Of a stretch of DNA of 64,000 bases, positions 13,982-64,000 are shown one piece after another (positions within the stretch are counted from its first letter, which is position 1; each line of letters begins with the position of its first letter). Origin of the DNA: Hormiphora californensis. Lineage: Eukaryota; Animalia; Ctenophora. The notes beneath the pieces are model-generated. The model was not told where the DNA came from, did no database searches, and worked only from the letters and a program-made list of their open reading frames with translations. The stretch spans positions 4,340,001 to 4,404,000 of the forward strand of contig CM035350.1 in the NCBI GenBank assembly GCA_020137815.1. Direction: 5' to 3'. Both the position numbers and the translations under genes were made by a program.

Positions 13982-34478
<20,497 letters not shown>

Positions 34479-42700: not shown

Positions 42701-45700
42701 CTCCTCCCATCACCCCTAACACCCCTCCCATCAACCCTAACACCCCTCCCGTCACCCCTAACACCCCTCCCATCACCCCTAACACCCCTCCTAACACCCC
42801 TGACACCCCTCCCATCACCCCTAACACCCCTCCCATCACCCCTAACACTCCTCCCATCACCCCTAACACCCCTCCCATCACCCCCATCACATTCCACACT
42901 GTACAGAGGGATGAGGAAGCTGGATTCATTCTACCCATCCTCGCCACCCCTCTCTACAACATTCCTCCCTGCCTCTGTGTCATCTACATCTTCGACTATC
43001 ATTGAAACCGGAATCCCATATGAATTTGACCCGTATGTGAAACCATTGCGCTTTGTTATATTATAATTGTGTTTAATTACAATTTAAGATAAACTTCTTT
43101 ATGTAATGACCCACCAATAACTTATTGTACTGTGTTTCTGTCTGATTTTACTATGTTTGCATTTCGGGTTTCGCATTGTTTTGTTCTCTCTCGCGAGTTA
43201 ACTTTTAATCTCATTCAGCTGGGTATAGCTCTGAGTTTTGGGTTTTGGGACACAATACCCATCAACTATTGCTGAGCAAATTTGATTAATATCCCCCCCC
43301 ACATGCCAATAATATCATCATTTAGACTTTCGTCTGATTTATATCGCTGCATGTTCATTGTTCAATCTGATAATGGTCCCACAATCGTTAAACCCAAAAC
43401 TAAACTCCCGATCTAAAACTCCCCCCCCCCCCCAGTGTACTGATGATCCACGAGCACACTGGCACAGAGAAGAGCAACATCTACACAAAGCAGATCCCAG
43501 ATCAGAGGGGGCACAGTAAGAAGTTTATCCACCTTGCTAAAAACTACAAACTTTCCCCTGAAACATTTGATGAGAGTTGCCTTCATAACGCTGAGGTTTG
43601 TATTATGGGGAGGGGGGATGAGTGGGGAGAGTATTTGATTAGAGTTGAGGTTTGTATTATGGGGAGGGGGAGGGGGAGCATTTGATTAGAGTTGTTTGGG
43701 GGGGGGACATGTTAATTGTTAATAAATCACCTCTTTTTTTCGATTTTGTTAATTAACGTTAATTAACAAAATTAACAAAATTAACAAATGCTAAAAGACT
43801 GTTCTTATCGGTTGATAATACGACTTTAACTGGTTTAATTTTATAGTTTAATGACTTACCTAACACATATATACCCAAACAAGGCCTCTTCCGGTAACCA
43901 AAGTCCGACATAAAGGTTTTTTGGCTCAAAATCGATAAAATCCAAAAGTTACAAATATTTCAATTTAGCGTATAAAATCTCACTTTAACGTAATTTTTTC
44001 ATAGATAATCGATTCTTTTAACGAAAGAAGATGATGTACAACGTTTCTGTTGGAAAAAGAAATACAATTTTTCAAAAATCAATTTTTTGGTCAAAGATTG
44101 AAAATTTGATTCGCTACAAATCCTTGTGTTTTTTTAGAAAAATTGATTTTTGGGATATTTTTGATTTTTAGGTAAATTCATGAGTTTTAGAGTTGGAAAA
44201 TGTGAATTAGGGTCATTTGACTTCAATTGCGGTTTAGTTTAGCTAGTTTTTATTAAAAGGTACACAATGGAACAAATCGCTGTAGAAAAGCCGTAGTAGA
44301 GGTAGTATGGGTATGCAAATCGTGCAGAAGGAACAACTTTGCTCGCAGAACAAGTGTTTAATACCAAAAACACGTGCTAAAGGGGATTTAGATGGCATAA
44401 ATGGCATTTGTTAACGTTTGTTAACTTTTTGTTAATTTTGTTAATAAATCACCTGCTTTCTCGATGTTAATATTAACAAAGTTAACAAAATTAACATGTC
44501 CCCCCCCCCAGTTGTTTTCATAACGCTGATGTTTGTATTATGGGGAGGGGATGAGTGGGGAGAGCATTGGCCTGAGCCAAGCTGAGATGATCCCCCTGGC
44601 CCTTTACACCATCCCTAATCCACTAATATCTTTTGCTGAGTTTGGAATCTAACAAAACCACATGAATCATCTCCCTTTCCTCTGTTGTTTAGTAACAACA
44701 ATTCCTTTCCTAGGTGGCTGAATCCCAGGGGCTCCTTCATGCGGCATCTAACTGGCGTCTTCTCACCGTCCTCTTTACAGACACACAGGTCGTCCTGCCA
44801 TTCTATGATGGGGAGATAAACTTTGAAAATCAACGCAAACTGAAACGCTCAAGTAGGTCTCGGTGGTACCTAGATCTATCATTTTAGCTAAGGCTGCCCT
44901 TGCATTTCTCACAATTCTCCCTGGACTCTGGAGGTTGACCATTGTCATTCTAAAACCAGGGTTGTGTTTCCTTCGAATCTTAGCACACACCAGCAGTATT
45001 CTCTGATCAGGGAGGATATCAGTTGTTATGTTCCTTCTTTCCATTTGTATGCGCGCGAAACACAGTGTAGCTAGGCAAGATATCAGTACCAGACACTATG
45101 ATTTAGAAAATCTTCCATTGCAGATACACAGTCGACTGACAGGGGTAATGTGATTTCCTCTGACCAATCTCTGGAGTCTCCAAACATTGAGTCAGACAGT
45201 GACCACACAGACTATAATTTCGGGTAAGAAATTTAGAGAAAAAACCTTGTAACAAATTTTAAGCAAATAAAATAAATTACTAATTGTCTCCTATCAGTCG
45301 GAGCTCCTTCGTAGAGGACCAGAGAAGGTTAGAAGAAGAAGACGACGCTAATGATGAGGGTGATATCCACAACGAATCTCAACCGGTATGTGATACCGTC
45401 CCGGTATGTCGAGCAAGGCAAGTGAGGCCGGGATGGTATCACATACCGGCCCCACTTGCCTTGCTCGACCCTGTTAGAACATCCCCCACCCGATATTTTG
45501 CCTAATTGCCCGTGTGTGTGTGTGTGTATATGTACCTCCGTACTTCCATCCACACTGCTGACGTTGGGGATCAGCTAGCCCTTATTTCCGTAGGATCTCC
45601 CCTTGGCGCCCACACACCGACAACCCGAGCGCCGACCCACACCCCCAGGTCAAAGCCGCCTTCAGTGTTCAAACGGGTTACCCCGTTGTCCCCTCCGACA

Positions 45701-48700
45701 GCGATGACCTTAGAGATGCAGACCGACAGACGATCCTACTTAATAAGTTCTTGCATAAATCCTACCTACGACAGCGGATGCACTAACACAAGCGTGTCAG
45801 TCTTACGTTCCTGGGTTGTCCCAGGTGTAGGTAGTTGCCGAACGATAGCGACGTCTCCATAACTAGAGCGTCTCACTATTTTTTCACTCCCGCATTGCCT
45901 TGTTATGGCTAATACCTTATGGTTTGGGTATAGCGGGAGGGGTCGGTCCACCGAGTCGTTCGCATGCATTTGCATTTGAAGAGGAGTCGGCCCATGTGGC
46001 ACTGTTTGTTATTGGGTTCCATCTAGAATAGGGGTACCAATACCATATCTCTAGTGGCTGGCGACTTTGCAGTTGTGATTACCGTTTCCAGTACTGTTGC
46101 ATACCGTTTGGTTTCAGATCCGACCTGTTATGCTCAGGGCTTTGCGACTTGGCTGTTGTTGAGGCTATCTGTGACGGATCGATTTTTTTAGGGAGGGGGG
46201 AGGTAGCCTTTAGTGACTCATCGGAGTAATCCAGACTTCGTAATCAGTTTTGCTGGGGTTGCCGTTACATATATTGCAGTGGTGCCATGTTATTGTGTTG
46301 TCGTGTGAGACAGTGGTGCTCCGTTTTTGGGGTTGTTGTATAATGCAGTGGTGCCCCTTTTTTGAGGTTGCCGCGTGAGACAGTGGTGCCCCATTTTTAG
46401 AGTTGCCGTTTAATGCAGTGGTGCCCCGTTTTTGGGTTGTCGTATAGTGCAGTGGTGCCCCGTTTTGGGGTTGCCGTATAGTGCAGTGGCGCCCCGTTTT
46501 TGGGTTGCCGTATAATGCAGTGGTGCCCCGTTTTTGGGGTTGCCGTATAGTGCAGTGGCGCCCCGTTTTTGGGTTGCCGTATAATGCAGTTGTGCCCCGT
46601 TTTTGGGTTTGTTGTATAATGCAGTGGTGCCCCTTTTTTGAGGTTGCCACGTGAGACAGTGGTGCCCCGTTTTTAGAGTTGCCGTATAATGCAGTGGTGC
46701 CCCGTTTTTGGGGTTGTTGTATAATGCAGTGGTGCCCCTTTTTTGAGGTTGCCACGTGAGACAGTGGTGCCCCGTTTTTAGAGTAGCCGTTTAATGCAGT
46801 GGTGCCCCGTTTTTTGGGTTGCCGTATAATGCAGTGGTGCCCCGTTTTTGGGGTTGCCGCGTGAGACAGTGGTGCCCCGTTTTTGGGGTTGCCGCGTGAG
46901 ACAGTGGTGCCCCGTTTTTAGAGTTGCCGTATAATGCAGTGGTGCCCCGTTTTTGGGTTGTCGTATAATGTAGTGGTGCTCCGTTTTTGGGGTTGCCGTA
47001 TAGTGCAGTAGCGCCCCGTTTTTGGGTTGCCGTATAATGCAGTGGTGCCCCGTTTTTGGGGTTGCCGTATAGTGCAGTGGGTTGCCGTATAATGCAGTTG
47101 TGCCCCGTTTTTGGGTTTGTTGTATAATGCAGTGGTGCCCCCCTTTTTTTTTAGGTTGCCACGTGAGACAGTGGTGCCCCGTTTTTAGAGTTGCCGTATA
47201 ATGCAGTGGTGCCCCGTTTTTGGGGTTGTTGTATAATGCAGTGGTGCCCCTTTTTTGAGGTTGCCACGTGAGACAGTGGTGCCCCGTTTTTAGAGTAGCT
47301 GTTTAATGCAGTGGTGCCCCGTTTTTTGGGTTGCCGTATAATGCAGTAGTGCCCCGTTTTTGGGGTTGCCGCGTGAGACAGTGGTGCCCCGTTTTTGGGG
47401 TTGCCGTGTGAGACAGTGGTGCCCCGTTTTTAGAGTTGCCGGGGGGGGGGGGGACATGTTAATTGTTAATAAATCACCTCTTTTTTTCGATTTTGTTAAT
47501 TAACGTTAATTAACAAAATTAACAAAATTAACAAATGCTAAAAGACTGTTCTTATTGGTTGGTAATACGACTTTAACTGGTTTAATTTTATAATTTAATG
47601 AATTATCTAACACATATTTACCCAAACAAGGCCTTTTCTGATAACCAAAGTCCGACATACAGGTTTTTTGGCTCAAAATCGATAAAATTGCAAAAGTTAC
47701 AAATATTTCAATTTAGCGTATAAAATCTCACTTAAACGTAATTTTTAAATTGGTAATCGATTCTTTGGACTTAATAAGATGATGTACAACGTTTCTGTTG
47801 AAAAAAGAAATAAAATTTTCCCAAAATCAATTTTTTGGTCAAGGATTGAAAATTTGCTTCGCTACAAATCCTTGTGTTTTTTAGAAAAATTGATTTTTGG
47901 GATATTTTTCGTTTTAAGTTAAATTCATGTGTCTTATTTAGTTTTTAGGGTGCGAAAATGTGGATTAGGGTCATTTGACTTCAATTGCGGTTTAGTTTGG
48001 CTAGTATTTATTAACATTTACAAAATGGAATAAATCGCTGTAGAAAAGCCGTAGTAGAGGTAGTAGGGGTATGTAAATCGTACAGAAAGAACAACTTTGC
48101 TCGCAGAACAAGTGTTAAATAATAAAAATACGTGCTAAAGGGGATTTAGATGGCATAAATGGCATTTGTTAACGTTTGTTAACTTTTTGTTAATTTTGTT
48201 AATAAATCACCTGTTTTCTCGATGTTAATATTAACAAAGTTAACAAAATTAACATGTCCCCCCCCCCCCCCAGTTGCCGTATAATGCAGTGGTGCCCCGT
48301 TTTTGGGTTGTCGTATAATGTAGTGGTGCTCCGTTTTTGGGGTTACCGTATAGTGCAGTAGCGCCCCGTTTTTTTGGGGTTGCCGTATAGTGCAGTAGCG
48401 CCCCGTTTTTGGGTTGCCGTATAATGCAGTGGTGCCCCGTTTTTGGGGTTGCCGCGTGAGACAGTGGTGCCCCGTTTTTGGGGTTGCCGTATAGTGCAGT
48501 GGCGCCCCGTTTTTGGGTTGCCGTATAATGCAGTGGTGCCCCGTTTTTGGGGTTGCCGTATAATAGTGCAGTGGCGCCCCGATTTTAGGTTGCCGTGGTG
48601 CCCCGTTTTTGGGGTTACCGTGTAATACAGCGGTGCCCCGTTTTTAGGTTTTGTTTATTGTCATAGGTATTTACTATTTTCTTTGATCATCTGGAAATCC

Positions 48701-51700
48701 AAAGAGTGTATGTCTTACGGTACTGGGGTTTTCCCAGAATTGGTTTTTGCCGAACGATAGCGCCGGGTCCTCACATATGGACGCGTCACGCTACTTGTAA
48801 TGAATCGATTTTCTTTTGGAGGTCGGCTTTGGCTCACCTAAAAACCCGGATTTCGTGGTCAAATTAAGTAGTTAGTTTAGTTAGATCTTGACTTTGTTCG
48901 GTGTAGGGTTCTTCTTTTGGTTCAGGTACGATGGTAAGGGTAGGTTCACCTAGTCTCCCTGTCTAGTATTCGGTATTTATCGTGTGTGTGTGTGTCGTGT
49001 ACCTCCCGTACTTCCACCCACTTGCTGTCGTTGGGGAGCAGCGATCCCTAGATTTCACAGTTCTCTCCTCAGGTCACCAACACACATGGCTGCCCAGAGC
49101 GCCGTGCTCGATCTCCCGGTCAGGTCCCACCAAGGTAGCGCCGGGTTTCCCCGGTACCCCTTAGTGGTACCCTTCCATTGGAAGACACGAGTCGACAGAC
49201 GAGAACTGTTTCGATAAAGAGCATGAAGGTCACCACCAACAGCAGGCGCACTAGTACTACTGTACCAGTCTTACGGTACTGGGTTTCCCCAGAATAGGTT
49301 AAATCGCCGAACGATAGTGCGCGTTCATCTTCACCATGATGAGGCACCATTTGTGCACTACCACCTGCCTGTTTCCAGGCGTGTACCTCTGATCGGGGTA
49401 CAGTGGTAGGGTTCGGTCCATCGAGTCGTCATAGCAGCTATGATCGAGTCGACCCAGGTGGCGCTGTTCTTTTTGTTTAGCCGATCTAGTTGTGGGGGGC
49501 CAGTCCAAAGACTAGTGACTTGGTTTTTATTGCGCTTTTGCTAGTTGCGGATTTGCTTCTGCCGTGATGGTTTCAACAGACTCTACCTGATGAGATCAGG
49601 GCTTTGCCAGTGTGCACTTTTAAACTACCGTTGGTATAGAATCATTTTGGTGGTAGCGTTATGTTTTATTTGAATAGACCGGATTTGGTGACTACGTTGG
49701 TGAGTTTCCTTAGTTCCAGTGGCTCGTCTTCATTGTAAATGTTTTCTTTGATGTTTTGATACTCTTGAGTGAATCTGAGGTGGTGAAGGTCAGGACAGTT
49801 TAGTAGTTTGTGTTTGGAGTTTTCTCTTTCCCCACATAACTCACAGTTGGGATTTATGGAAGGGTCTCTGTGGGAGAGGGCGCTTCCTAGGTTGTTCTGG
49901 CCCGATATGGCCAGTGTCAGACTTCTCATTGTCTTCTTGTTTTTGATTGTTAGTTTAGTGTTTTCTCTAATAGTCTTTCCGATAATCGTTGTGGTAAACT
50001 CAGAGTAATTTTTCGTCTTTAGTTCGGCGATTGTCCCTGTCTTGTGTTGTTGTTTCAGCTTTGTCGTTATTTGACTCTTTGTTTGTCCTAGTGCATTCTG
50101 GGTGTTTTTGCTGTTTGCAGTCGCTTGTTTTGCTATTTGGTCTGCCCTCTCATTGCCTTCTATGTTTGCGTGGGCCTTCACCTTTACTTTTTCTACGCCA
50201 TTATCTCTTTGCAGTTCGTGTATACTTCGTAGAGTTTCGGTTAGTTGTTTGGAGTTTGAGAAGTTTCTTGTTAGTCTTCTCAGTGTAGTGCTAGAGTCGG
50301 TGTGGATCACTAGGTGTGACTCCTTTGTTTCCATTTCTAGTAGTTTCTTTATTACCATATGTATTGCCAGTAGCTCTGCTTGGTTTATGGTGTTTTCGGG
50401 TGCAAGGGGCTCTTGAAGGATGATTTCCTGGTTATCCATGTAGATTATGGCTCCTGCTCCTGTCACGTGTGTTGAGTCTATCTTAATTCTTGACCCATCT
50501 GTGTACGCGTTTATTACTTTGTTCTTGCTCAGTTGGGAGTTTTGTTCAAAGGTTATATCGGTGTATTTTGTCTGGTCGATGGCATTAGGAGTTTTTAGGC
50601 TTGTTAAGAGTAATTTCATCGCCTTCGAGTGCGTTAGATGCGCTCTTTTTTCGTGGAAGGGGTCTGTCCACCAGTTTCCCTCAGCCTTCAGGTGTATGTA
50701 GTTGTTGATACTTTCTTTGTTGATATGGTAGGTGACATCGTCCACTCCTGCCATTGTGGTTAGCACTATGTGCTGAGTGTGTTCGTGTCCTCCGGTGATC
50801 CTTCGAGTGATAGAGTTCTGTGCTGCTTCCAGCTTCATCTTGAGTGTTTGGTTTTTCAGCGCTTTCTGTCCCCATATGCCTGCCCCGTATGTCAGGGTCT
50901 TCATAAGGATATTGTCGTGAACGTATCTGCCTTAGGCTGTGCTTATTCCCCATTTTGTTGTCATGAGGTGTCTCAGTGGTCTCGCAGATCTTTTAATTGT
51001 TTCTGTTTTATTTTGGACGTGGGCTTTGTAGTTTAAGTTTTTGTCCAGGGTTAAATTCCTAGATACATCGCCTGGTTTGTGACTGGGATAGTGTAGTGCT
51101 AGAGTCGGTGTGGATCACTAGGTGTGACTCCTTTGTTCCCATTTCTGGTAGTTTCTTTATTACCAATTGTATTGCCAGTAGCTCTGCTTGATTTATGGTG
51201 TTTTCGGGTGCTGTTAGTTTTCCAAAATCCAGTTTCTGGTTTTTGTCATATATGTTTTGTTGTATCGTGTATCGCCGATACTATCGGAAATTTAAATGTT
51301 TCAATATCAAGCAAAAGTGAAAAAAGATATCTATAAAGTCGCCTGACCGGGATTTGAACCTGGCATCTTATGCTTCTTAGCCCAGAAAGTGGCCATTAGA
51401 CCACGGAGCTGTTAGGTACAGTGCAATTCAGATATACTTATCCTGTGCCGAGATTAGAAATTTTGGCAGAGGTTCCCCAGGGGCTCCTGGCCCCTACTCG
51501 GTTTTTCAAGAAAGTTCACCCGGCCAGATTCTGGCCCGCCGGTGCCTGTTATTGGAGCAACAGGAGCCCTTGCACAAAAGCTTTATTGGCACTTGAGTAA
51601 TGTTGGTATATATATACTAAGTGTTATCGTGTTGGTCGTAGGGCAGGATTCCCTCAATTTGTGTTAATACCATTTGTTACAGTTGACCGCACTTTATTGA

Positions 51701-53864
51701 TCCATCAGGCCCCAGGATCGCGGCTACGGGACCTATCCCTGGCCTTTCCCCAGAGAGACCTCCCTCCCCGGGTCCTTCCTGTGAAGGACCCGCAGCACCC
51801 ACCCCCCATGAGATTAGGCCCTAGGCTGCCACAGGGAGTCAGAAAATCCTGTCACCTGACTCCCCCCGCAGGGTATTTATCGTGTTAAATCGCCGGTATA
51901 ATCGGAAACTTAAATGCTTCAATATCAAGCAAAAGTGAAAAAAAAGATGTCTAATATTATAAATCTCTTGACCGGGATTTGAACCTGGGATCTTGTGTTT
52001 CTTAGCCCAACTTGTGGCCATTCGGCCACGGAGCTGTTGGTTCCAGTGCAATTCAGATATACTTATCCTGTGCCGCTATTTGAAAATTGGGCAGGGGTTC
52101 CCCAGGGGCACCATGCCCCTACTCGGTTTTTAGGAAGGGAACACCCGGCCAATTGATTTGGACCCGCCGGTGCCTGTTTTAGGGTGGCAACAGGAGCCCT
52201 GGCGTGTAAGCAATGGTGTATAAGCTACATATGTGTTATACGTGTTTTTTGGAACACCCGGCCAATTGATTTGGACCTGCCGGTGCCTGTTTAAGGATGG
52301 CAACAGGAGCCCTGGCGTATTAGCAATGTTGGCACTCCAAGTTCTGTTAAATAGACTTGAGTGTTGTGGTATAAGGTCATAGGGCTGGATTCCCTCTGTT
52401 TGGGCAATGCCGATTTATTGCAGGTTGACCGCACCCGTATTGGTCCATCAGGCCCCAGGACCGCGGCTGTGGGACCACTCCCTAGTCTTTCCCCGAGAGA
52501 TACCCTCCCCCTGCCCCCTCCCTAGTCCCCCGCGGGACTACCATACCCCCTGAGATAGACAATGGGCTGCCACAAGGAGTCAGTAATCCAGTCACCTGAC
52601 TCCCCCCACAGCTAATTGCCCGTGTCAGTTTAGTTGGGCTCTGGAGAACTCTCCAATGATATCAGTACATTGTACAACAGTCCACGCTTTTATTCCTACA
52701 ATTAATCCCTAAGTACTCCCTAGTCCCTAATAACACTCCCCCCTCAGCATCTAAACTGGGACATGCTGGATGCTGCGTTTCAACAACAAACCCTCAACCC
52801 CGAGAGTACTGAGTGTGACGATCAGAGTGACAAAAGCTCCCTTCCCGATACTGACCCTGCCTTTTACAGCTCATACGATGCTGCCCAGGTTGGTGTTGCG
52901 GGGTTGATCTACCGAACCCTCCCAGAGTGCGCTCGTCATTTTAAAATTAAATAGCGGTTTGACCACACAAGTGAGGGGTTACATCTAGCTAGATGTATGG
53001 TATGTGTACCGGGTGTGTTCCTTCCTCTTTATTTATAGGCAGCTGTGCCCAACAGTGCAAAATAAAATGATGTGCTAGATGCGAAACCTATCGGATAAAG
53101 TAGATAGCTGCCTCAAAATTGTTGCATGATTTGCTTTTGTTTCTTCCAAGAAGGACTAGACTGGTATCAATTATAATCGATTGGAATTCAAAAGCAGGTC
53201 TAGAGGCCCCCCAAATCAAAATCGTTCTTACATCCCCTCTCTATTGCCCTCGTTCATTACCAAGAGGACCACTCCCCCTCCCTTTCTTAACCCCATCCCT
53301 CCCCCTGCCCAGGAGAACCCATCTTCATTCCGGCACAACCGCACGGAAAACATCAAGATCAACATCAACTACAAGATAGGCTCTCTAACAATCGACATGC
53401 TGGAGGATCTGGTCGAGGAGGGAGATGTCCAGAGCGCATGTACTATGATCCTCGTCCTGGGATCCCGGTTAGATCGGGCTGTCATGGATTGTCAGGAGTA
53501 TGATATAGTGGACGAGACGGTGCCATGGTTCTACGCTTACCTGGATCTCCTATCCAGGTTCAGGTTGTGGAACATCCAGGCGGATATAGTTCAGAGGAGC
53601 ACTGATGCGATTAAACTGCTGAACAGTACTGGCGAGATTAGGGCGATGTGTGGTAAGCAGACTTGTTATCGACCCCTGAAGAGGGGGAATTGTGACAAGT
53701 GTGGTCCGGTGACAGTGTGCAGTGTGTGCAGGATGACGGTGAGAGGGGTGTTTTTGTGGTGTCAAGGGTGTGGGCATGGAGGACATTATGATCACCTGAA
53801 AGAATGGTTTACCACCCAGAGAGACTGTCCTGCTGCGTGTGGACATGAGTGTGAGTGGTCGTGA
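37574..53864 (+). CDS. WDR24: GATOR2 complex subunit WDR24 (WD40 propeller + C-terminal zinc finger/RING), 17 exons, ~815 aa
   Basis: Exons 37574-37627, 37757-37852, 37947-38029, 38144-38261, 38431-38574, 38837-38947, 39339-39479, 39718-39881, 40412-40461, 41667-41847, 42907-43032, 43436-43595, 44714-44852, 45124-45223, 45298-45385, 52748-52888, 53313-53864; all phases are consistent. WD repeats, CLHNAEVA, GDVQSACTMILVLG, YLDLLSRFRLWN and CSVCRMTVRGVFLWCQGCGHGGHYDHLKEWF..CPAACGHECEWS fit WDR24. Confidence 0.92.
40531..41177 (-). CDS. Secreted 178-aa prepro-protein (signal peptide, RHKR furin-type site), 2 exons, nested antisense in WDR24 intron 9
   Basis: Exons 41177-41054 and 40943-40531, phase 1 on both sides. 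MLARLLLIITIALSSVLS is signal-peptide-like; TATAAAAG at 41265-41258. Confidence 0.72.
41258..41265 (-). promoter_or_regulatory. TATA box upstream of the nested secreted-protein gene
   Basis: TATAAAAG on the minus strand, ~85 nt upstream of the ATG at 41177. Confidence 0.5.
42224..42890. repeat. 21-bp C-rich minisatellite (~31 copies) just before a WDR24 acceptor
   Basis: Unit acccctaacacccctcccatc. Confidence 0.95.
43698..44509. mobile_element. Non-autonomous DNA transposon (MITE) copy 1, poly-G/poly-C termini, 8-bp TSD
   Basis: TIR G(n)acatgttaatt(t)tgttaa; TSD agttgttt at 43690-43697 and 44510-44517. Highly similar to copy 2. Confidence 0.88.
46250..48650. repeat. ~35-bp minisatellite array inside the outer retroelement, interrupted by MITE copy 2
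   Basis: Unit gttgccgtataatgcagtggtgccccgtttttgg(g), with a gccacgtgagacagtgg variant. Confidence 0.92.
47442..48271. mobile_element. MITE copy 2, same family as 43698-44509
   Basis: Same TIRs and body; TSD agttgccg at 47434-47441 and 48272-48279. Confidence 0.88.
49666..51090 (-). pseudogene. RT thumb / RNase H / Cys-His finger remnant of a LINE ORF2
   Basis: YLG-TLDKNLNYKAH with a frameshift and stop upstream of 50904. RNase H motifs YTDGS, NQAELLAI, HTDS and VKAHANIEGNERADQIAK; CELC..HKLLNC. A second copy of ~120 bp of the RNase H region lies at 51091-51211. Confidence 0.88.
51340..51410 (-). ncRNA. tRNA-derived Pol III cassette inside the inner element (not a functional tRNA)
   Basis: A-box TGGTCTAATGG, B-box GGTTCAAATCC and a downstream T-run; the acceptor stem does not pair. 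Confidence 0.6.
51965..52035 (-). ncRNA. tRNA-derived Pol III cassette inside the outer element
   Basis: A-box TGGCCGAATGG, B-box GGTTCAAATCC and a downstream T-run. Confidence 0.6.
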
Positions 53865-58455: not shown

Positions 58456-59472
58456 AGTGATCGTCCTAGAATATAATACACGGATTAATAAGAGCAATTT
58501 AAGGCTTTTGTTTTGTTCAAATATGGTCGATCAAGGCACTAACTAAGGTGGATCAGGGACTGCAAAGTGAGCAATGCATACTTCACAGCCAGGCATATTT
58601 GCCGTAAAACAAACAAGTGAACTTCCGGATCCTAGTATTGCACACAGGGTCACGTTTTTACCAGGTAAACGTGAGAACACAAACACTAAACAGATAATGT
58701 CTGGGGCGAATGGGCATATTTAGGCCGCAAAAATAAATTATAAATCCCTTATGGTAGAAAGATAAAGATAGGGGTCATTCTGGAATAAAATTAATTCGCA
58801 GACTCCAAGCTAGAGAAAGTGGGACAGTTGGCTGTTTGGACAGCTTGTTGAGAAACTACACAGTCTTCAACTGCAGATTCGTGACCTTGCGACCATAAAA
58901 TAATCGAGTAACGGGCCCGGTAACCAAATTAAGTGTCATGTGAGACGAATTCCATGTTCCCTATGCAGTATGCTGCAAACCTCTGTATTTGGGAGCAGAT
59001 AGGGGATAATTCGAGGTCACGGAACATTTCAATATACCTACAACCCTTCAGTAATCCCCTTCCCTTGGTAAAGCAATTCTTATCTTTTATCTGCTACAAA
59101 TTTGCCACGTTTTTGCCTCGACGCTCGCCGTTGCATCTGTCAACATTAAATGCACAATTTGTAGCAAATATCAGAAAACGAGAGCTGTAGCTTGCTGCCC
59201 AGTGGCTATATACCGTACAGTACTATAAATAATAAAATCAATATCAGAATACAGAACACCCAGCTGCGTAAAGTTGGAAGCATCCGGGAAGCAAGTTACT
59301 ACAAGATCTAATTCTGACTAATAGCAGTGTTGGGCAAAATGAAAGAACTGCCTGACACACTATCAGTCACAAATAACAGCACTAACCGCTCTCACCAACA
59401 CTATCAGTCAGACCAATCTTTACTATCTGGGAATCTCTACTCAGAATCTCAGTTTCCTAGAAATCCTTATCA

Positions 59473-62397
59473 GTGATAAGAACACGCATAGGCACTTTCA
59501 ACTGCAGAACACTCCGAACAGCTGACAAAGTCAGCGAGCTGGCTTATCAATTCTCTAAACATGGTATTGGTCTTTTGGGTATCCAGGAGCACCGAATTGT
59601 CCATCCAGAGACTGTTAAGAGAACCCAGGCTGGGCCAGACTCAATCCTATTAACATCGACAGCCTGGCGGAATAGTGTGGGAGCGTCTGTTGGAGGGGTC
59701 GGAATCTTAATGGGGACCAATGCATCGAAGCTCATTGTTGAGACAAGAGTGGTTTCTAATCGGATCCTGGCCGTCACCTTCGCCGGCAATCCCAAGCTAA
59801 CGCTTGTTACCGTATACTCACCGACAGAAGGTGCCGAATTTGATGAAGTAGAACAGTTCCATAACGAGCTAAGAGAATATCTACACGAAGTACCTGCTCA
59901 CAATCTCCTGATTGTTTGTGGCGACTTCAACGCTCGCCTTGGTTGGGAAGGAACTAGTTCTGGATGGTACTATCATCGTACCACCAGCCGTAACGGTGTC
60001 CTTCTGAAGGAAACTATGGAGGAAACCAACTTGGAGGCCACCAACATTAGATTCCGGAAGAAGAAGAGTCGTTTGTGGACATTCCTGTCGGACGGGACAC
60101 AGCGGAAGGCCACCCTGGATTATATACTAATAAGGAAGAAATGGAGGAATAGTATTAAGGACACCACGACGTCCGAGGCGTTAAGCTCCCTTGGATCTGA
60201 TCATCGGTTGCTTATCGCCAAGGTCAAACTCACCCTACGGAAGAGGAAGACTCTGCCAGGAAGACCGAATCTCGACTATGGTCCTCTCAGAACCGACCCG
60301 GACCTGAGGGATCGTTTCTCTGTTGAGGTTCACAACCGATTTTCCTGTCTAACATCTACTGCTGAAGACGACCCAACTACGAACTATGGTCACTTCATTA
60401 GCGCAGTACAGGAAACGAGTAAAGCTCTCCTTGGGAAGAAGCGAAAACGTCTGAAAGACGTTGTGGCAGAGGACTATAGAGTTAAGCGAGTGAGGACAGA
60501 GTTGGAGTGTGCCAGTAAGGAGTATCACGAAGCACCAGACGAGAGGACGAGGACCAGAGTAAATAGGGCGAAGGAGGGGTTAGCGGGGGCCTATGGAGAG
60601 GTTGAGTCGGAGATTATTGAGGGTAAGATTAGGAGGGTAGAGGATGCTGCTAGGAATGCTAAGTCACGAGAAGTTTGGAGGATAGTTAACGAGGTCTCTG
60701 GTAGAAACCTGAGGACAGCTAGTCAGTTGGAGGGGGGCTCACCGGAAGAGAGGAATGATATATGGTTGAATCACTTCCGAACCCTACTAGGGTCTACACC
60801 ATCAGGGTCATCAGACACGGAAGTCGAACAGCTCTTCCCCCCGGCAGACATCTTCACTGGCAGCTTCACTCTTGAGGAATATCAGAGGGCCAAGAAGAGG
60901 ATTAAGGAGGGGAAGGCTTATGGGGATGACAGCATCCCTCCTGAGGTTCTGAAAAGGTGTGATCTGGATGAGATAGTGCTGGGGTTTTGTAACGGTGCTT
61001 TAGAAGGTAAAGGTATTCCAGAACAATGGACAGTGAGTAACATCATTCCTGTCCCGAAGAAGGGCGACCTGTCCAAGCCTGGGAACTACCGTGGTATTGC
61101 ACTGACTTCAATAGTTGCTAAAACGTTGAACAGGATGCTACTACATCGCATCCGGCCCTATATTGAGACTAAACTCCTTGACTCCCAGAACGGATTCCGA
61201 GAGGGACGCTCAACCACCAGTCACATCTTAACACTGAGGAGGATACTGGAGGGTGCGAGGAAGAAACAACTCCCGGTAGCCATGGCTTTCATCGACTTTG
61301 TTAAAGCCTTTGATAGTATCAACCGTTCCAGCCTGATCAAAATCTTAAGGGCATACGGCATACCAGATGCTATCGTCGATCTTATCCAATGGCTCTACAC
61401 TAACACCAAAGCGCAAATCCTTACAGCCGACGGCGTTACTGCTATATTTGAGATCGTGGCTGGTGTCTTACAAGGCGACACATTAGCCCCGTATCTCTTT
61501 ATCATAGTGCTGGACTATTGCTTACGGATAGCACTCAGTAGACACCCGGAGATCGGTTTCACTCTGAGACCTGCTAGGAGTAGGAGAGTTGGGGCATCCA
61601 GAGTTACTGACACTGGCTTCGCGGATGACGTGGCCCTGCTGGCAAACTCGGTTGAGGAGTTAGGGGTTTTACTTCGTGAGGTTGAAACGGTATGTAAGGA
61701 GGTTGGTCTGGCTATTAACCAGAACAAAACGGAGCTCATAGTGGAGAACATCCCAGATCCAGAGCCGCTTCTTACCTGTGACGGACACACCATCAAAACA
61801 ACCGATGACTTCAAATACCTGGGTTCGTGGATCAGAGATTCGAACAAGGACATCAAGAACCGGAAGAGTAAGGCATGGGTTGCCTGCCACGGCTTGAAGA
61901 AAGTCTGGAACTCAGATCTTAAAGACGAACTCAAGTGTAGGTTATTTGTTGCTACTGTCGAAACCGTTCTCCTATACGGATGTGAGACCTGGACCCTCAC
62001 CAAACAAATGGAGAAGAGTTTGAATGGAGCTTATACTCGTATGTTGAGAATGGCACTTAACAAGAACCAGTGGCAACTCCGCATGACTAATGGCACGTTG
62101 TATGGTATTGGAGGGTTACCCATTCTCAGCACTAAAATAGCGGAACGAAGACTACGACTTGCCGGACATGCACAACGCCATCCTGAGCTGACCCTCCACA
62201 AAGTCCTTCTTTGGGAACCGCTCCATGGTCAAGCCAAACGTGGCAGGCCCTCGAAAACCTTTGTGGATGTTCTACGGCAAGATACGGGTCTGGGAGACGT
62301 GAAGGAGATAGCTTCAGTTATGGAGGAACGTGATGCGTGGAGAAAACTTGTTCAAGGCGTTCGGGAATTCCACCCGCCTTAAGTCAAAGTAAGTCAA
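59473..62397 (+). mobile_element. RTE-type non-LTR retrotransposon, single uninterrupted APE-RT ORF (59473-62382)
   Basis: APE motifs IGTFNCRTL, GIQEHR, GDFNAR, LDYIL and SDH; RT motifs NYRGIAL, QNGFR, FIDFVKAFDS, GVLQGDTLAPYLF, FADD and FKYLG. Very short 3' end with aagtc repeats; candidate TSD agtgataa at 59472-59479 and 62397-62404. Confidence 0.92.
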
Positions 62398-62629: not shown

Positions 62630-62995
62630 GAGTAACACGTGTAACGTACCTCTGCCATTGAGTAACACGTGTGTAACGTACCTCTGCCATTGAGTAACAC
62701 GTGTAACGTACCTCTGCCATTGAGTAACACGTGTAACGTACCTCTGCCATTGAGTAACACGTGTAACGTACCTCTGCCATTGAGTAACACGTGTAACATA
62801 CCTCTGCCATTGAGTAACACGTGTAACGTACCTCTGCCATTGAGTAACACGTGTAACGTACCTCTGCCATTGAGTAACACGTGTAACGTACCTCTGCCAT
62901 TGAGTAGCACGTGTAACGTACCTCTGCCATTGAGTAACACGTGTAACATACCTCTGCCATTGAGTAACACGTGTAACGTACCTCTGCCATTGAGT
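62630..62995. repeat. 30-bp minisatellite, ~12 copies
   Basis: Unit gagtaacacgtgtaacgtacctctgccatt. Confidence 0.95.
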
Positions 62996-64000
62996 GTGTG
63001 TGTGTGTGTGTTTTGCACCGCCCGTCATTCCTCCCACTTTACTGCCCCACAATGGTCGGCAGACAACCTATATTAATATTTGGCCACATTGATGCCTGAG
63101 TGAGATCGAGGTCGCGCAGCGACCGAGATCGATCTCACATCTAGGCCTCCGGCGCGTTATTGATTTTAGAGCAAACTTTTTCAAAGACCTGGCTGCAAGG
63201 AACTACCGAACCGATTTGCATCTCGTTTGTTGCTCCTGGCAGATAATTGTCTCTAGTTTTACGGAAAATACCCGCGAGTATCAGCATTTGAGGAATAGTG
63301 GGTCAAAATTGACGCTAAACATGAGCAATTCTTTAAAGACCTGGCTGCAAGCTCCTACTCGGTCCTGGGACAATCTGCGGGTACTGGGGGAATCGTCATG
63401 GCCTTGTGAGTATGGGAAAATACCCGCCGATTCATCACGATGCGAAATGAGGCCATAATTGATCTTTGAGCAGTGCTAGGTCAGCTAAAAAGGTCTCCAA
63501 AAACGGTCTATCACGCGCGATCTGCTGAAAACGTGCTTTAATATCGCGCGCACGTGAGTTCTTGCTCTCAACGGACCGGGATCCTATTATTCGCGGAGCG
63601 AGAATAGGATGCGATGGATCCAATATTAATATCACTCTTCGCCACCGTCCCCCACACGTAGGGATAATGTTGATGTTGTTCCGGTTTGGGTCCTGGTATT
63701 TTGTCGAGCAAGCTCAACATTTCCCTCGAACCTTCGCCGGCATCACAAGAAGAGTATTTGATACAGTGAATCTAATATTAGACTGACATACCTATATTGT
63801 CAGGACAATGGATGGAATTTACCTGTCTCACAGACTGGTCTTTGGTTACTACTGCTCCAGGGAGCTGTAGAGGTAGGTGGGTTGCCGGATATGACAATAC
63901 CGTGGGTTCACCATCTAATCGGTGACGGCTGAAATATCTTATCACACCTCAGGTCTTTGGTCAAAACCGCTAGCAGTACTTATCAGCATGCAACCTGGGG

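Follow-up and report, generated by a model that had tools for sequence, protein, structure and literature searches.

The locus and its host intron

The window analysed here is a stretch of 64,000 nt from contig CM035350.1 of the ctenophore Hormiphora californensis (positions 4,340,001 to 4,404,000 of the forward strand), and all coordinates below refer to it. At 45502-52625 a non-LTR retroelement is inserted into a diverged relative, and both lie in an intron of a gene that we take to be WDR24 and whose C-terminus matches zf-RING_16 in Pfam. A spliced contig from the public run X1 joins position 45385 to 52748, and X1 contigs also join the exon beginning at 52748 to the next exon; therefore, the element lies within a spliced GT-AG intron. 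Calculated without the 7110-nt insertion, this intron would measure 252 nt. Run X1 is likely RNA despite its 'DNA?' label, and the element sequence within it is likely transcribed, the contigs showing neither strand nor level. The features of the intron and of the outer element are as follows.

45386..52747, plus strand: intron of the WDR24-like host gene (7362 nt)
45502..45515, no strand: outer target-site duplication (TSD), tail side, one of an exact pair
45516..45527, minus strand: outer (AC)n tail
45528..46217, minus strand: outer 3' UTR, which shares blocks of homology with its inner counterpart
45790..45858, minus strand: structured 3' UTR motif, conserved, copy 1 of 3
46218..46250, minus strand: last ten ORF2 codons and stop of the outer element (11-14 of 500 shuffles reach the score)
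46270..48645, no strand: 35-bp minisatellite between two ORF2 C-terminal remnants
47442..48270, no strand: unrelated MITE of 0.83 kb, its inverted repeats ending in G13/C13, with a duplication of 8 bp
48676..48708, minus strand: remnant of the ORF2 C-terminus that shares 9 of 11 aa with protein P0001
48702..48770, minus strand: second of the three 3' UTR motif copies, carried by an additional captured piece of a 3' end
48845..48928, minus strand: decayed ORF2-end-like piece of another subfamily
51886..52611, minus strand: outer 5' module with a 113-nt internal duplication
51938..52028, minus strand: putative tRNA-derived cassette, A box from 52028 and B box to 51975
52612..52625, no strand: outer TSD, 5' side, one of an exact pair

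The inner element comprises the following parts.

48972..48985, no strand: inner TSD, tail side, exact pair and empty site
48986..48995, minus strand: inner (AC)n tail
48996..49665, minus strand: inner 3' UTR, with motif copy 3 of 3 at 49268-49329
49666..51089, minus strand: ORF2 3' fragment (RT end/thumb, RNase H, CCHC knuckle)
51090..51211, minus strand: 122-nt duplicate of part of RNase H, 96% identical to 50282-50403
51212..51265, minus strand: 18 codons of an ORF2 C-terminus of another subfamily (against each of the three references, 0 of 500 shuffles reach the score)
51266..51270, minus strand: ACACG homologous to the outer insertion site; 5'-module homology stops 3 nt further on
51271..51871, minus strand: inner 5' module with exact 5' end
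51320..51403, minus strand: putative tRNA-derived cassette, A box from 51403 and B box to 51350
51872..51885, no strand: inner TSD, 5' side, exact pair and empty site

A strong hairpin at 45383-45469, with 28-nt arms that are 93% complementary, stands where the host intron begins and some 30 nt away from the outer TSD. Its matches to miRNA families were all sub-threshold, and the nine Rfam matches returned were all to this hairpin, outside the element. The MITE has a second copy at about 43698-44509; both copies are 0.8 kb long, 92% identical, bounded by poly-G/poly-C-ended inverted repeats and flanked by 8-bp duplications beginning AGTTG, which hints at a target preference of the MITE. Elsewhere in the window, an uninterrupted 973-aa endonuclease-RT frame with a short tail (59461-62382, plus strand), presumably RTE-like, is unrelated to the nested elements. 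At 62630-63040, (GT)9 stands beside 12 copies of a 30-bp unit, and the adjoining 42 nt are 83% identical to the inner 3' end; this is possibly the tail of a more distant relative that runs off the window. Two adjacent long single-exon frames at 21263-25479 on the minus strand resemble, by eye, ankyrin-repeat TRP channels.

Insertion sites, nesting and target choice

The two 14-bp TSD pairs of the original prediction proved exact, each 14-mer occurring exactly twice in the window and neither pair extending on either side. In the window-wide search, the outer TSD, CTAATTGCCCGTGT, begins at 45502 and 52612 only, and the inner TSD, GGTATTTATCGTGT, at 48972 and 51872 only. The left copies run into (GT)n (45512-45527 and 48982-48995), bearing out the claim that the TSDs are continuous with the tails, and therefore both elements lie on the minus strand with (AC)n at their end. 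The inner element is 2886 nt long, and the outer one is 3366 nt long after removal of the inner element and the MITE.

Public contigs of runs X1, X4, X5 and X7, of 22 runs listed, were compared with the window over 48660-53000, and a second comparison, at 51805-51905, covered X2, X4, X5 and X6; runs X8-X20, which are marine or aquatic metagenomes with shares of 0.06-0.22, stood outside these comparisons. In X1 and X5, two of the four runs of the first comparison, position 48971 is joined directly to 51872, skipping 2900 nt, with 14 letters that fit both sides. The corresponding X1 contig (642 nt) represents the outer element without the insert and carries the 14-mer once, and loose ends of the empty form occur in all four runs of the second comparison. 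Because the inner site is thus found empty, with a single 14-mer, in public contigs, the nesting is a true insertion into a diverged relative, as had been proposed; such nesting is in itself ordinary. Of the features expected of TPRT, an empty site with one TSD copy was found for the inner element, and the outer insertion rests on its exact pair. Both elements have a simple-repeat 3' tail and no LTRs, the two ends of each not being repeats of one another.

A tandem duplication or an assembly artefact might be considered, in that the filled inner junction is spanned by no contig among those listed. However, the two 5' modules differ by 13-25%, exact TSDs stand at both the tail and the 5' end, and the site also occurs in its empty form; nor would an artefact put a second 14-mer in precisely that position. 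We regard this explanation as extremely improbable.

The prediction that these are multi-copy, internally deleted derivatives was upheld: the inner-type 5' end occurs with several flanks, all beginning at the same 5' nucleotide, and the outer 5' end occurs with other flanks in record 7 of X1 and in a row of X5 at 52612. The outer form is therefore a multi-copy family. For the internal junctions of the inner copy, no formal bridge was found among the contigs listed, which extend 30 nt on one side at 51089.

What, then, determines the site of insertion? The original prediction was a preference for CGTGT/ACACG. Eight other 5' junction rows were available, seven among the 22 of 29 loose-end rows listed for 51805-51905 and one from 48660-53000; an adapter row, a poly-G row and the non-terminal rows at 51835, 51845 and 51904 were excluded. 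Six of the eight were unmixed, being single contigs or having an agreement of 0.9, and the mixed rows comprised two and three contigs. The 14 letters beside the terminus, of which 0-7 are letters aligned to the window TSD, were read by eye, position 14 having been fixed beforehand from the window TSDs. Among these listed rows, CGTGT stood at positions 10-14 in none of eight. GTG or TGT occupied positions 12-14 in four of the six unmixed rows listed (P 2.6e-5), or in four of eight when the two mixed rows are included (P 1.2e-4); the remaining two unmixed flanks end in AGT and TGA. One of the four positive rows lacks the last four bases of the element, and its boundary is therefore uncertain.

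An endonuclease specific for ACACG/CGTGT, in a family that carries its own target, would account for the fact that both window TSDs end in CGTGT, a 5-mer with a frequency of 0.09% per position, and for the CGTGT of the inner copy (51266-51270), which does align with the outer insertion site as first described. It does not account for the junctions at other loci, where the base before GTG varies (T, G, A, A, T and G in the six unmixed rows listed), or for the CGTGT sites that remain: the 5-mer occurs 17 times on the plus strand of 45502-52625, 13 of them outside the TSDs. The homologous CGTGT is explained by shared descent. GTG and TGT together make up 3.7% of the 3-mers in the window, and in that light carrying one's own target is a trivial property; because so short a target is common, insertion into a relative needs no special self-targeting. 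We consider sequence-specific recognition of ACACG quite improbable. The accompanying suggestion of priming through tail microhomology is, on the other hand, favoured by the GTG or TGT next to the 5' end in those four of six unmixed rows. Thus, the rule is likely a 14-bp stagger combined with 3-4 nt of tail microhomology, the primer ending in either phase of (GT)n, rather than a 5-bp recognition site. Because only 5' junctions were seen at the other loci, a TSD of 14 bp would be expected there by extension from the window.

The (AC)n tail also recalls elements that target (AC)n microsatellites. Waldo and Mino, of the R1 clade, target ACAY and AC repeats (PMC3812793), and one flank from X2 contains (GT)4. 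Against such targeting, no microsatellite is left at either window site when the element is taken out, five of the six unmixed flanks listed have no AC repeat, and the RT relative of our elements falls outside the R1-like proteins. A microsatellite-targeting family is therefore, in our estimation, very unlikely as well.

ORF2 remnants, mosaic structure and the 5' module

The inner element retains a 421-aa frame in which the predicted RNase H was recognised (Pfam E 3e-16, motifs present), together with a CCHC knuckle. Its ORF2 fragment (49666..51089) is interrupted towards the 5' end by a single stop and a single frameshift and includes neither endonuclease nor RT core. The APE endonuclease and ORF1 are deleted from the inner and the outer copy alike. 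ORF2 is thus mostly deleted in the inner copy, as supposed; the outer copy, by contrast, is not wholly without ORF2, retaining three short C-terminal remnants. The remnant at 48676..48708 scored above all 500 shuffles against P0001 (9 and 44 of 500 reached the score against the other two references), and the piece at 48845..48928 gave 4, 3 and 108 of 500 against the three references. The outer ORF2 end at 46218..46250 lies directly before the 3' UTR, in the same position as in the inner copy, and the outer 3' UTR at 45976-46023 weakly matches the tail of P0001 (11 of 16 aa, E 0.18). At the ORF2 stop, contigs of X4, X5 and X7 depart from the window sequence, as do those of X4 and X5 at the frameshift, so that other copies are likely to be without these lesions. 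A 21-nt pattern of the 5' end gave 0 loci in metagenome contigs; a protein-guided scan yielded 222 pattern matches with 0 confirmed, recovering no autonomous copy with this 5' module.

The closest proteins are P0001 of Pleurobrachia bachei (61%) and P0002 (55%), the latter a single 1443-aa frame with endonuclease, RT, RNase H and CCHC. Taken by itself and apart from any host gene, this kinship of the element points to a likely ctenophore host. The window frame groups with both at a support of 100 (FastTree, 45 of 48 chosen sequences); the wider clade in the RNase H tree is unsupported (41). An RT tree was built with FastTree and SH-like support from 108 of the first 109 proteins, leaving out P0001, which has no RT core; P0002 stands in for the window elements in this tree, and no protein in it is labelled Loa. 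The RT of P0002 falls in a clade of 54 sequences (support 100), with the ant element P0055, beside 13 R1-like sequences, the joining branch having a support of 90. P0002 contains the RT motifs ISLTS-LLK and PQGG-LSPLLW, which we take to be Loa-typical. RNase H lies downstream of RT and is followed by CCHC, as in Loa, though this order is not diagnostic, being common to the R1, Tad and I clades too. The placement in the I group, which was correct in naming a non-LTR element with RNase H, can be narrowed: the lineage of the window elements is likely Loa-like and sister to R1, a label drawn from tree topology and RT motifs. Membership in the R1 clade itself was rejected, P0002 lying outside the 13 R1-like sequences and having no IGLL motif as they do. 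Solved structures gave eight weak matches, none of them to a Loa protein. We also observed that the gene model of P0001 repeats the region from RNase H to the end, the ORF2 C-terminus being rejoined to RNase H as in the inner element; either an error of assembly or a comparable rearrangement may lie behind this.

How might such elements have been put together? The two 5' modules align from nucleotide 1, as expected from the matching 5' ends first described, with 174 of 231 columns identical in their first part and 96 of 110 around the tRNA-like part. Their homology stops at ACACGATA, and a different ORF2 end continues each copy. After ACACG, the inner copy runs through the 18 C-terminal ORF2 codons and the 122-nt RNase H duplicate to the RT end. 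After the insertion site, the outer copy runs through the decayed ORF2-end-like piece, with its copy of the 3' UTR motif, then the remnant, then the minisatellite, beyond which follow the last ten ORF2 codons and the 3' UTR. At the DNA level, the pieces past the junction do not align between the copies, whereas the modules before it do, and from this we infer separate joins: a single 5' module was likely attached, on separate occasions and probably through template switching, to 3' ends from different subfamilies. A reading of the 60-nt stretch upstream of ACACG as a decayed piece of ORF2 was discarded, since 17 and 30 of 500 shuffles reached the score at best. Both modules also contain a second ACACG(T)ATA, at 51628-51632 and 52241-52245, some 360 nt upstream of the junction. 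With the junction it brackets the tRNA-derived cassette, and it might represent the decayed remains of a duplication made by an earlier insertion.

Immediately upstream of the cassette, the two modules have their longest stretch of identity, 32 nt that include a TATA-like core. With a consensus pattern composed after the site had been seen, two A-box/B-box pairs were found in the window, one per 5' module and each with a 32-nt spacer, compared with 0 in 200 shuffled windows; a T6 run (51320-51325) is present in the inner cassette and a T8 run (51938-51945) in the outer. From these boxes at tRNA spacing, we interpret the cassette as a putative tRNA-derived polymerase III promoter. It starts 469 and 584 nt from the elements' 5' ends; a SINE with a tRNA-derived 5'-terminal head was rejected on the grounds that the cassette is internal. 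A tRNA gene was rejected as well (ARAGORN, 0 genes; no cloverleaf fold). Contigs of X1 and X7 have the cassette region in common and diverge beyond 51506, which hints at a third type of 5' end.

These observations bear on a further explanation, that the 5' module was a separate tRNA-containing RNA, either SINE-like or a captured tRNA locus, that became attached to the 3' ends of LINEs, either through template jumps or through insertion at its ACACG, giving chimeric SINE-like elements whose integration step would be the same as in our preferred explanation. It draws on the boxes in tRNA register in both copies, on the end of module homology at ACACGATA with different ORF2 ends beyond, on the divergence of the X1 and X7 contigs, and on R2/R1, where hybrid elements as well as jumps of template to tRNA and U12 are known (PMC3414825). 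However, the cassette lies about 470-580 nt inside the element and not at its head, and it is followed by a T6-T8 run, at which polymerase III would terminate without reaching the LINE part. The portion upstream of the cassette is conserved too, to the extent given above, with the same exact 5' end. We therefore treat a separate origin of the module as possible but the less probable account, preferring internally deleted derivatives of a LINE.

The 5' end itself shows signs of structure. In either copy, nucleotides 1-8 can pair with those at about 141-148, the helix showing a compensatory change, and a covarying hairpin follows. This 8-bp helix from nucleotide 1, found post hoc, was reached in 1% of 300 column shuffles; helices of at least 5 bp with a double change were at chance level across the alignment (4 seen, 3.8 expected). 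Relative to shuffles, the first 222 nt fold better in the inner copy (z -2.1) and not in the outer (z +0.2). The order of helices recalls HDV-like ribozymes; yet a canonical one was rejected, because the strict descriptor had 0 matches in both 5' modules and Rfam none. In both copies, a relaxed HDV-like search found a P1 that starts at nt 1, a P3 and a loop of 7 nt, the misfits to the HDV-like core being a purine-rich L3, an inverted P1.1 and a P2 of only 2 bp. A strict HDV-like match in the outer 3' UTR was set aside, there being no counterpart in the inner copy, and the structured 3' UTR motif of about 65 nt, present in three copies, matches no Rfam family. As to what defines nucleotide 1, we rank an internal polymerase II promoter first and hold self-cleavage to be a minority possibility. 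More speculatively still, and in our view doubtful, the module might be a portable unit of a ctenophore Loa-like lineage, in which a pseudoknotted non-HDV RNA that defines or cuts nucleotide 1 and an independent tRNA-derived polymerase III unit would repeatedly capture LINE 3' ends at one AC-rich junction and so found new non-autonomous families.

Proposed mechanism and relation to known elements

The exact TSDs, the empty inner site, the other flanks, the shared 5' end, the loss of endonuclease and RT core and the retention of RNase H and CCHC are direct observations. Taking them together, we consider, with a probability of roughly 0.7, that the locus holds two related, internally deleted LINE derivatives that were trans-mobilised by an intact Loa-like LINE, through a nick at GTG/GTGT, priming by the (AC)n tail and a 14-nt stagger, with the 5' module rejoined by template switching. 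In this scheme, an intact Loa-like protein would bind the 3' UTR of the derivative RNAs. The nick made by its endonuclease would follow a short GTG or GTGT. The free 3' end would then anneal to the (AC)n tail and prime reverse transcription, and a second nick would fall on the other strand, 14 nt away. We infer these steps from established TPRT, and with them trans-mobilisation, the position of the nick, the priming and the 14-bp length at other loci.

If this reading is true, a fifth LINE clade would yield ORF-less bipartite derivatives, which as of 2018 were reported only for RTE, Ingi, Vingi and R2 (PMC5786205). Loa-like elements would likely extend to ctenophores. With the stagger fixed at 14 bp and the target left free, integration geometry in the R1 group would be set apart from the recognition of sequence. 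How such elements define their 5' end is a question on which the shared exact 5' end, covarying fold and putative tRNA-derived cassette also bear. A literature search over titles and the beginnings of abstracts, with Repbase, supplements and most subscription papers outside its scope, returned neither a ctenophore Loa element nor a LINE with an internal tRNA cassette, a weak negative.

The nearest known elements are those of the Loa clade (LOA, TRIM, Bilbo and Lian, as well as CiLOA), in which RNase H lies downstream of RT, as here; according to PMC2790886, named Loa elements with RNase H come from Drosophila, Aedes and Ciona and RNase H-less ones from Daphnia, and ctenophores are not among the hosts reported. 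In contrast to that clade, multi-copy derivatives without a usable ORF occur here. LOA is listed with an HDV-like ribozyme in PMC5786205, whereas no canonical one was found at the 5' end here; 5'-end self-cleavage is noted for baggins in PMC3774820.

Among the bipartite non-autonomous LINEs (RIME, NARTc, Bov-A, R2 SIDEs and R2/R1 hybrid SIDEs), the ends are kept, the middle is lost and mobility is in trans, as in our elements; ours differ in being longer (2.9 and 3.4 kb) and mosaic, with an internal tRNA-derived cassette. According to PMC3414825, R1 and the R2/R1 hybrid SIDEs make 14-bp TSDs, internally deleted hybrid elements use the R1 machinery, and R2 template-jumps to tRNA and U12. The 14-bp TSD of R1 and the AC-related targets of Waldo and Mino make the R1 clade (R1, Waldo, Mino) resemble our elements; the latter nevertheless have no rDNA or microsatellite target, and their RT relative lies outside the R1-like sequences. 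SINEs of tRNA origin with LINE tails carry, as here, an A box and a B box in tRNA register ahead of LINE-derived 3' sequence, but in our elements the tRNA part is internal, about 470-580 nt in, a T run follows it, and the whole is kilobases long. These elements likely combine a known mechanism and a probably known clade with a 5' module and a mosaic construction that are unusual.
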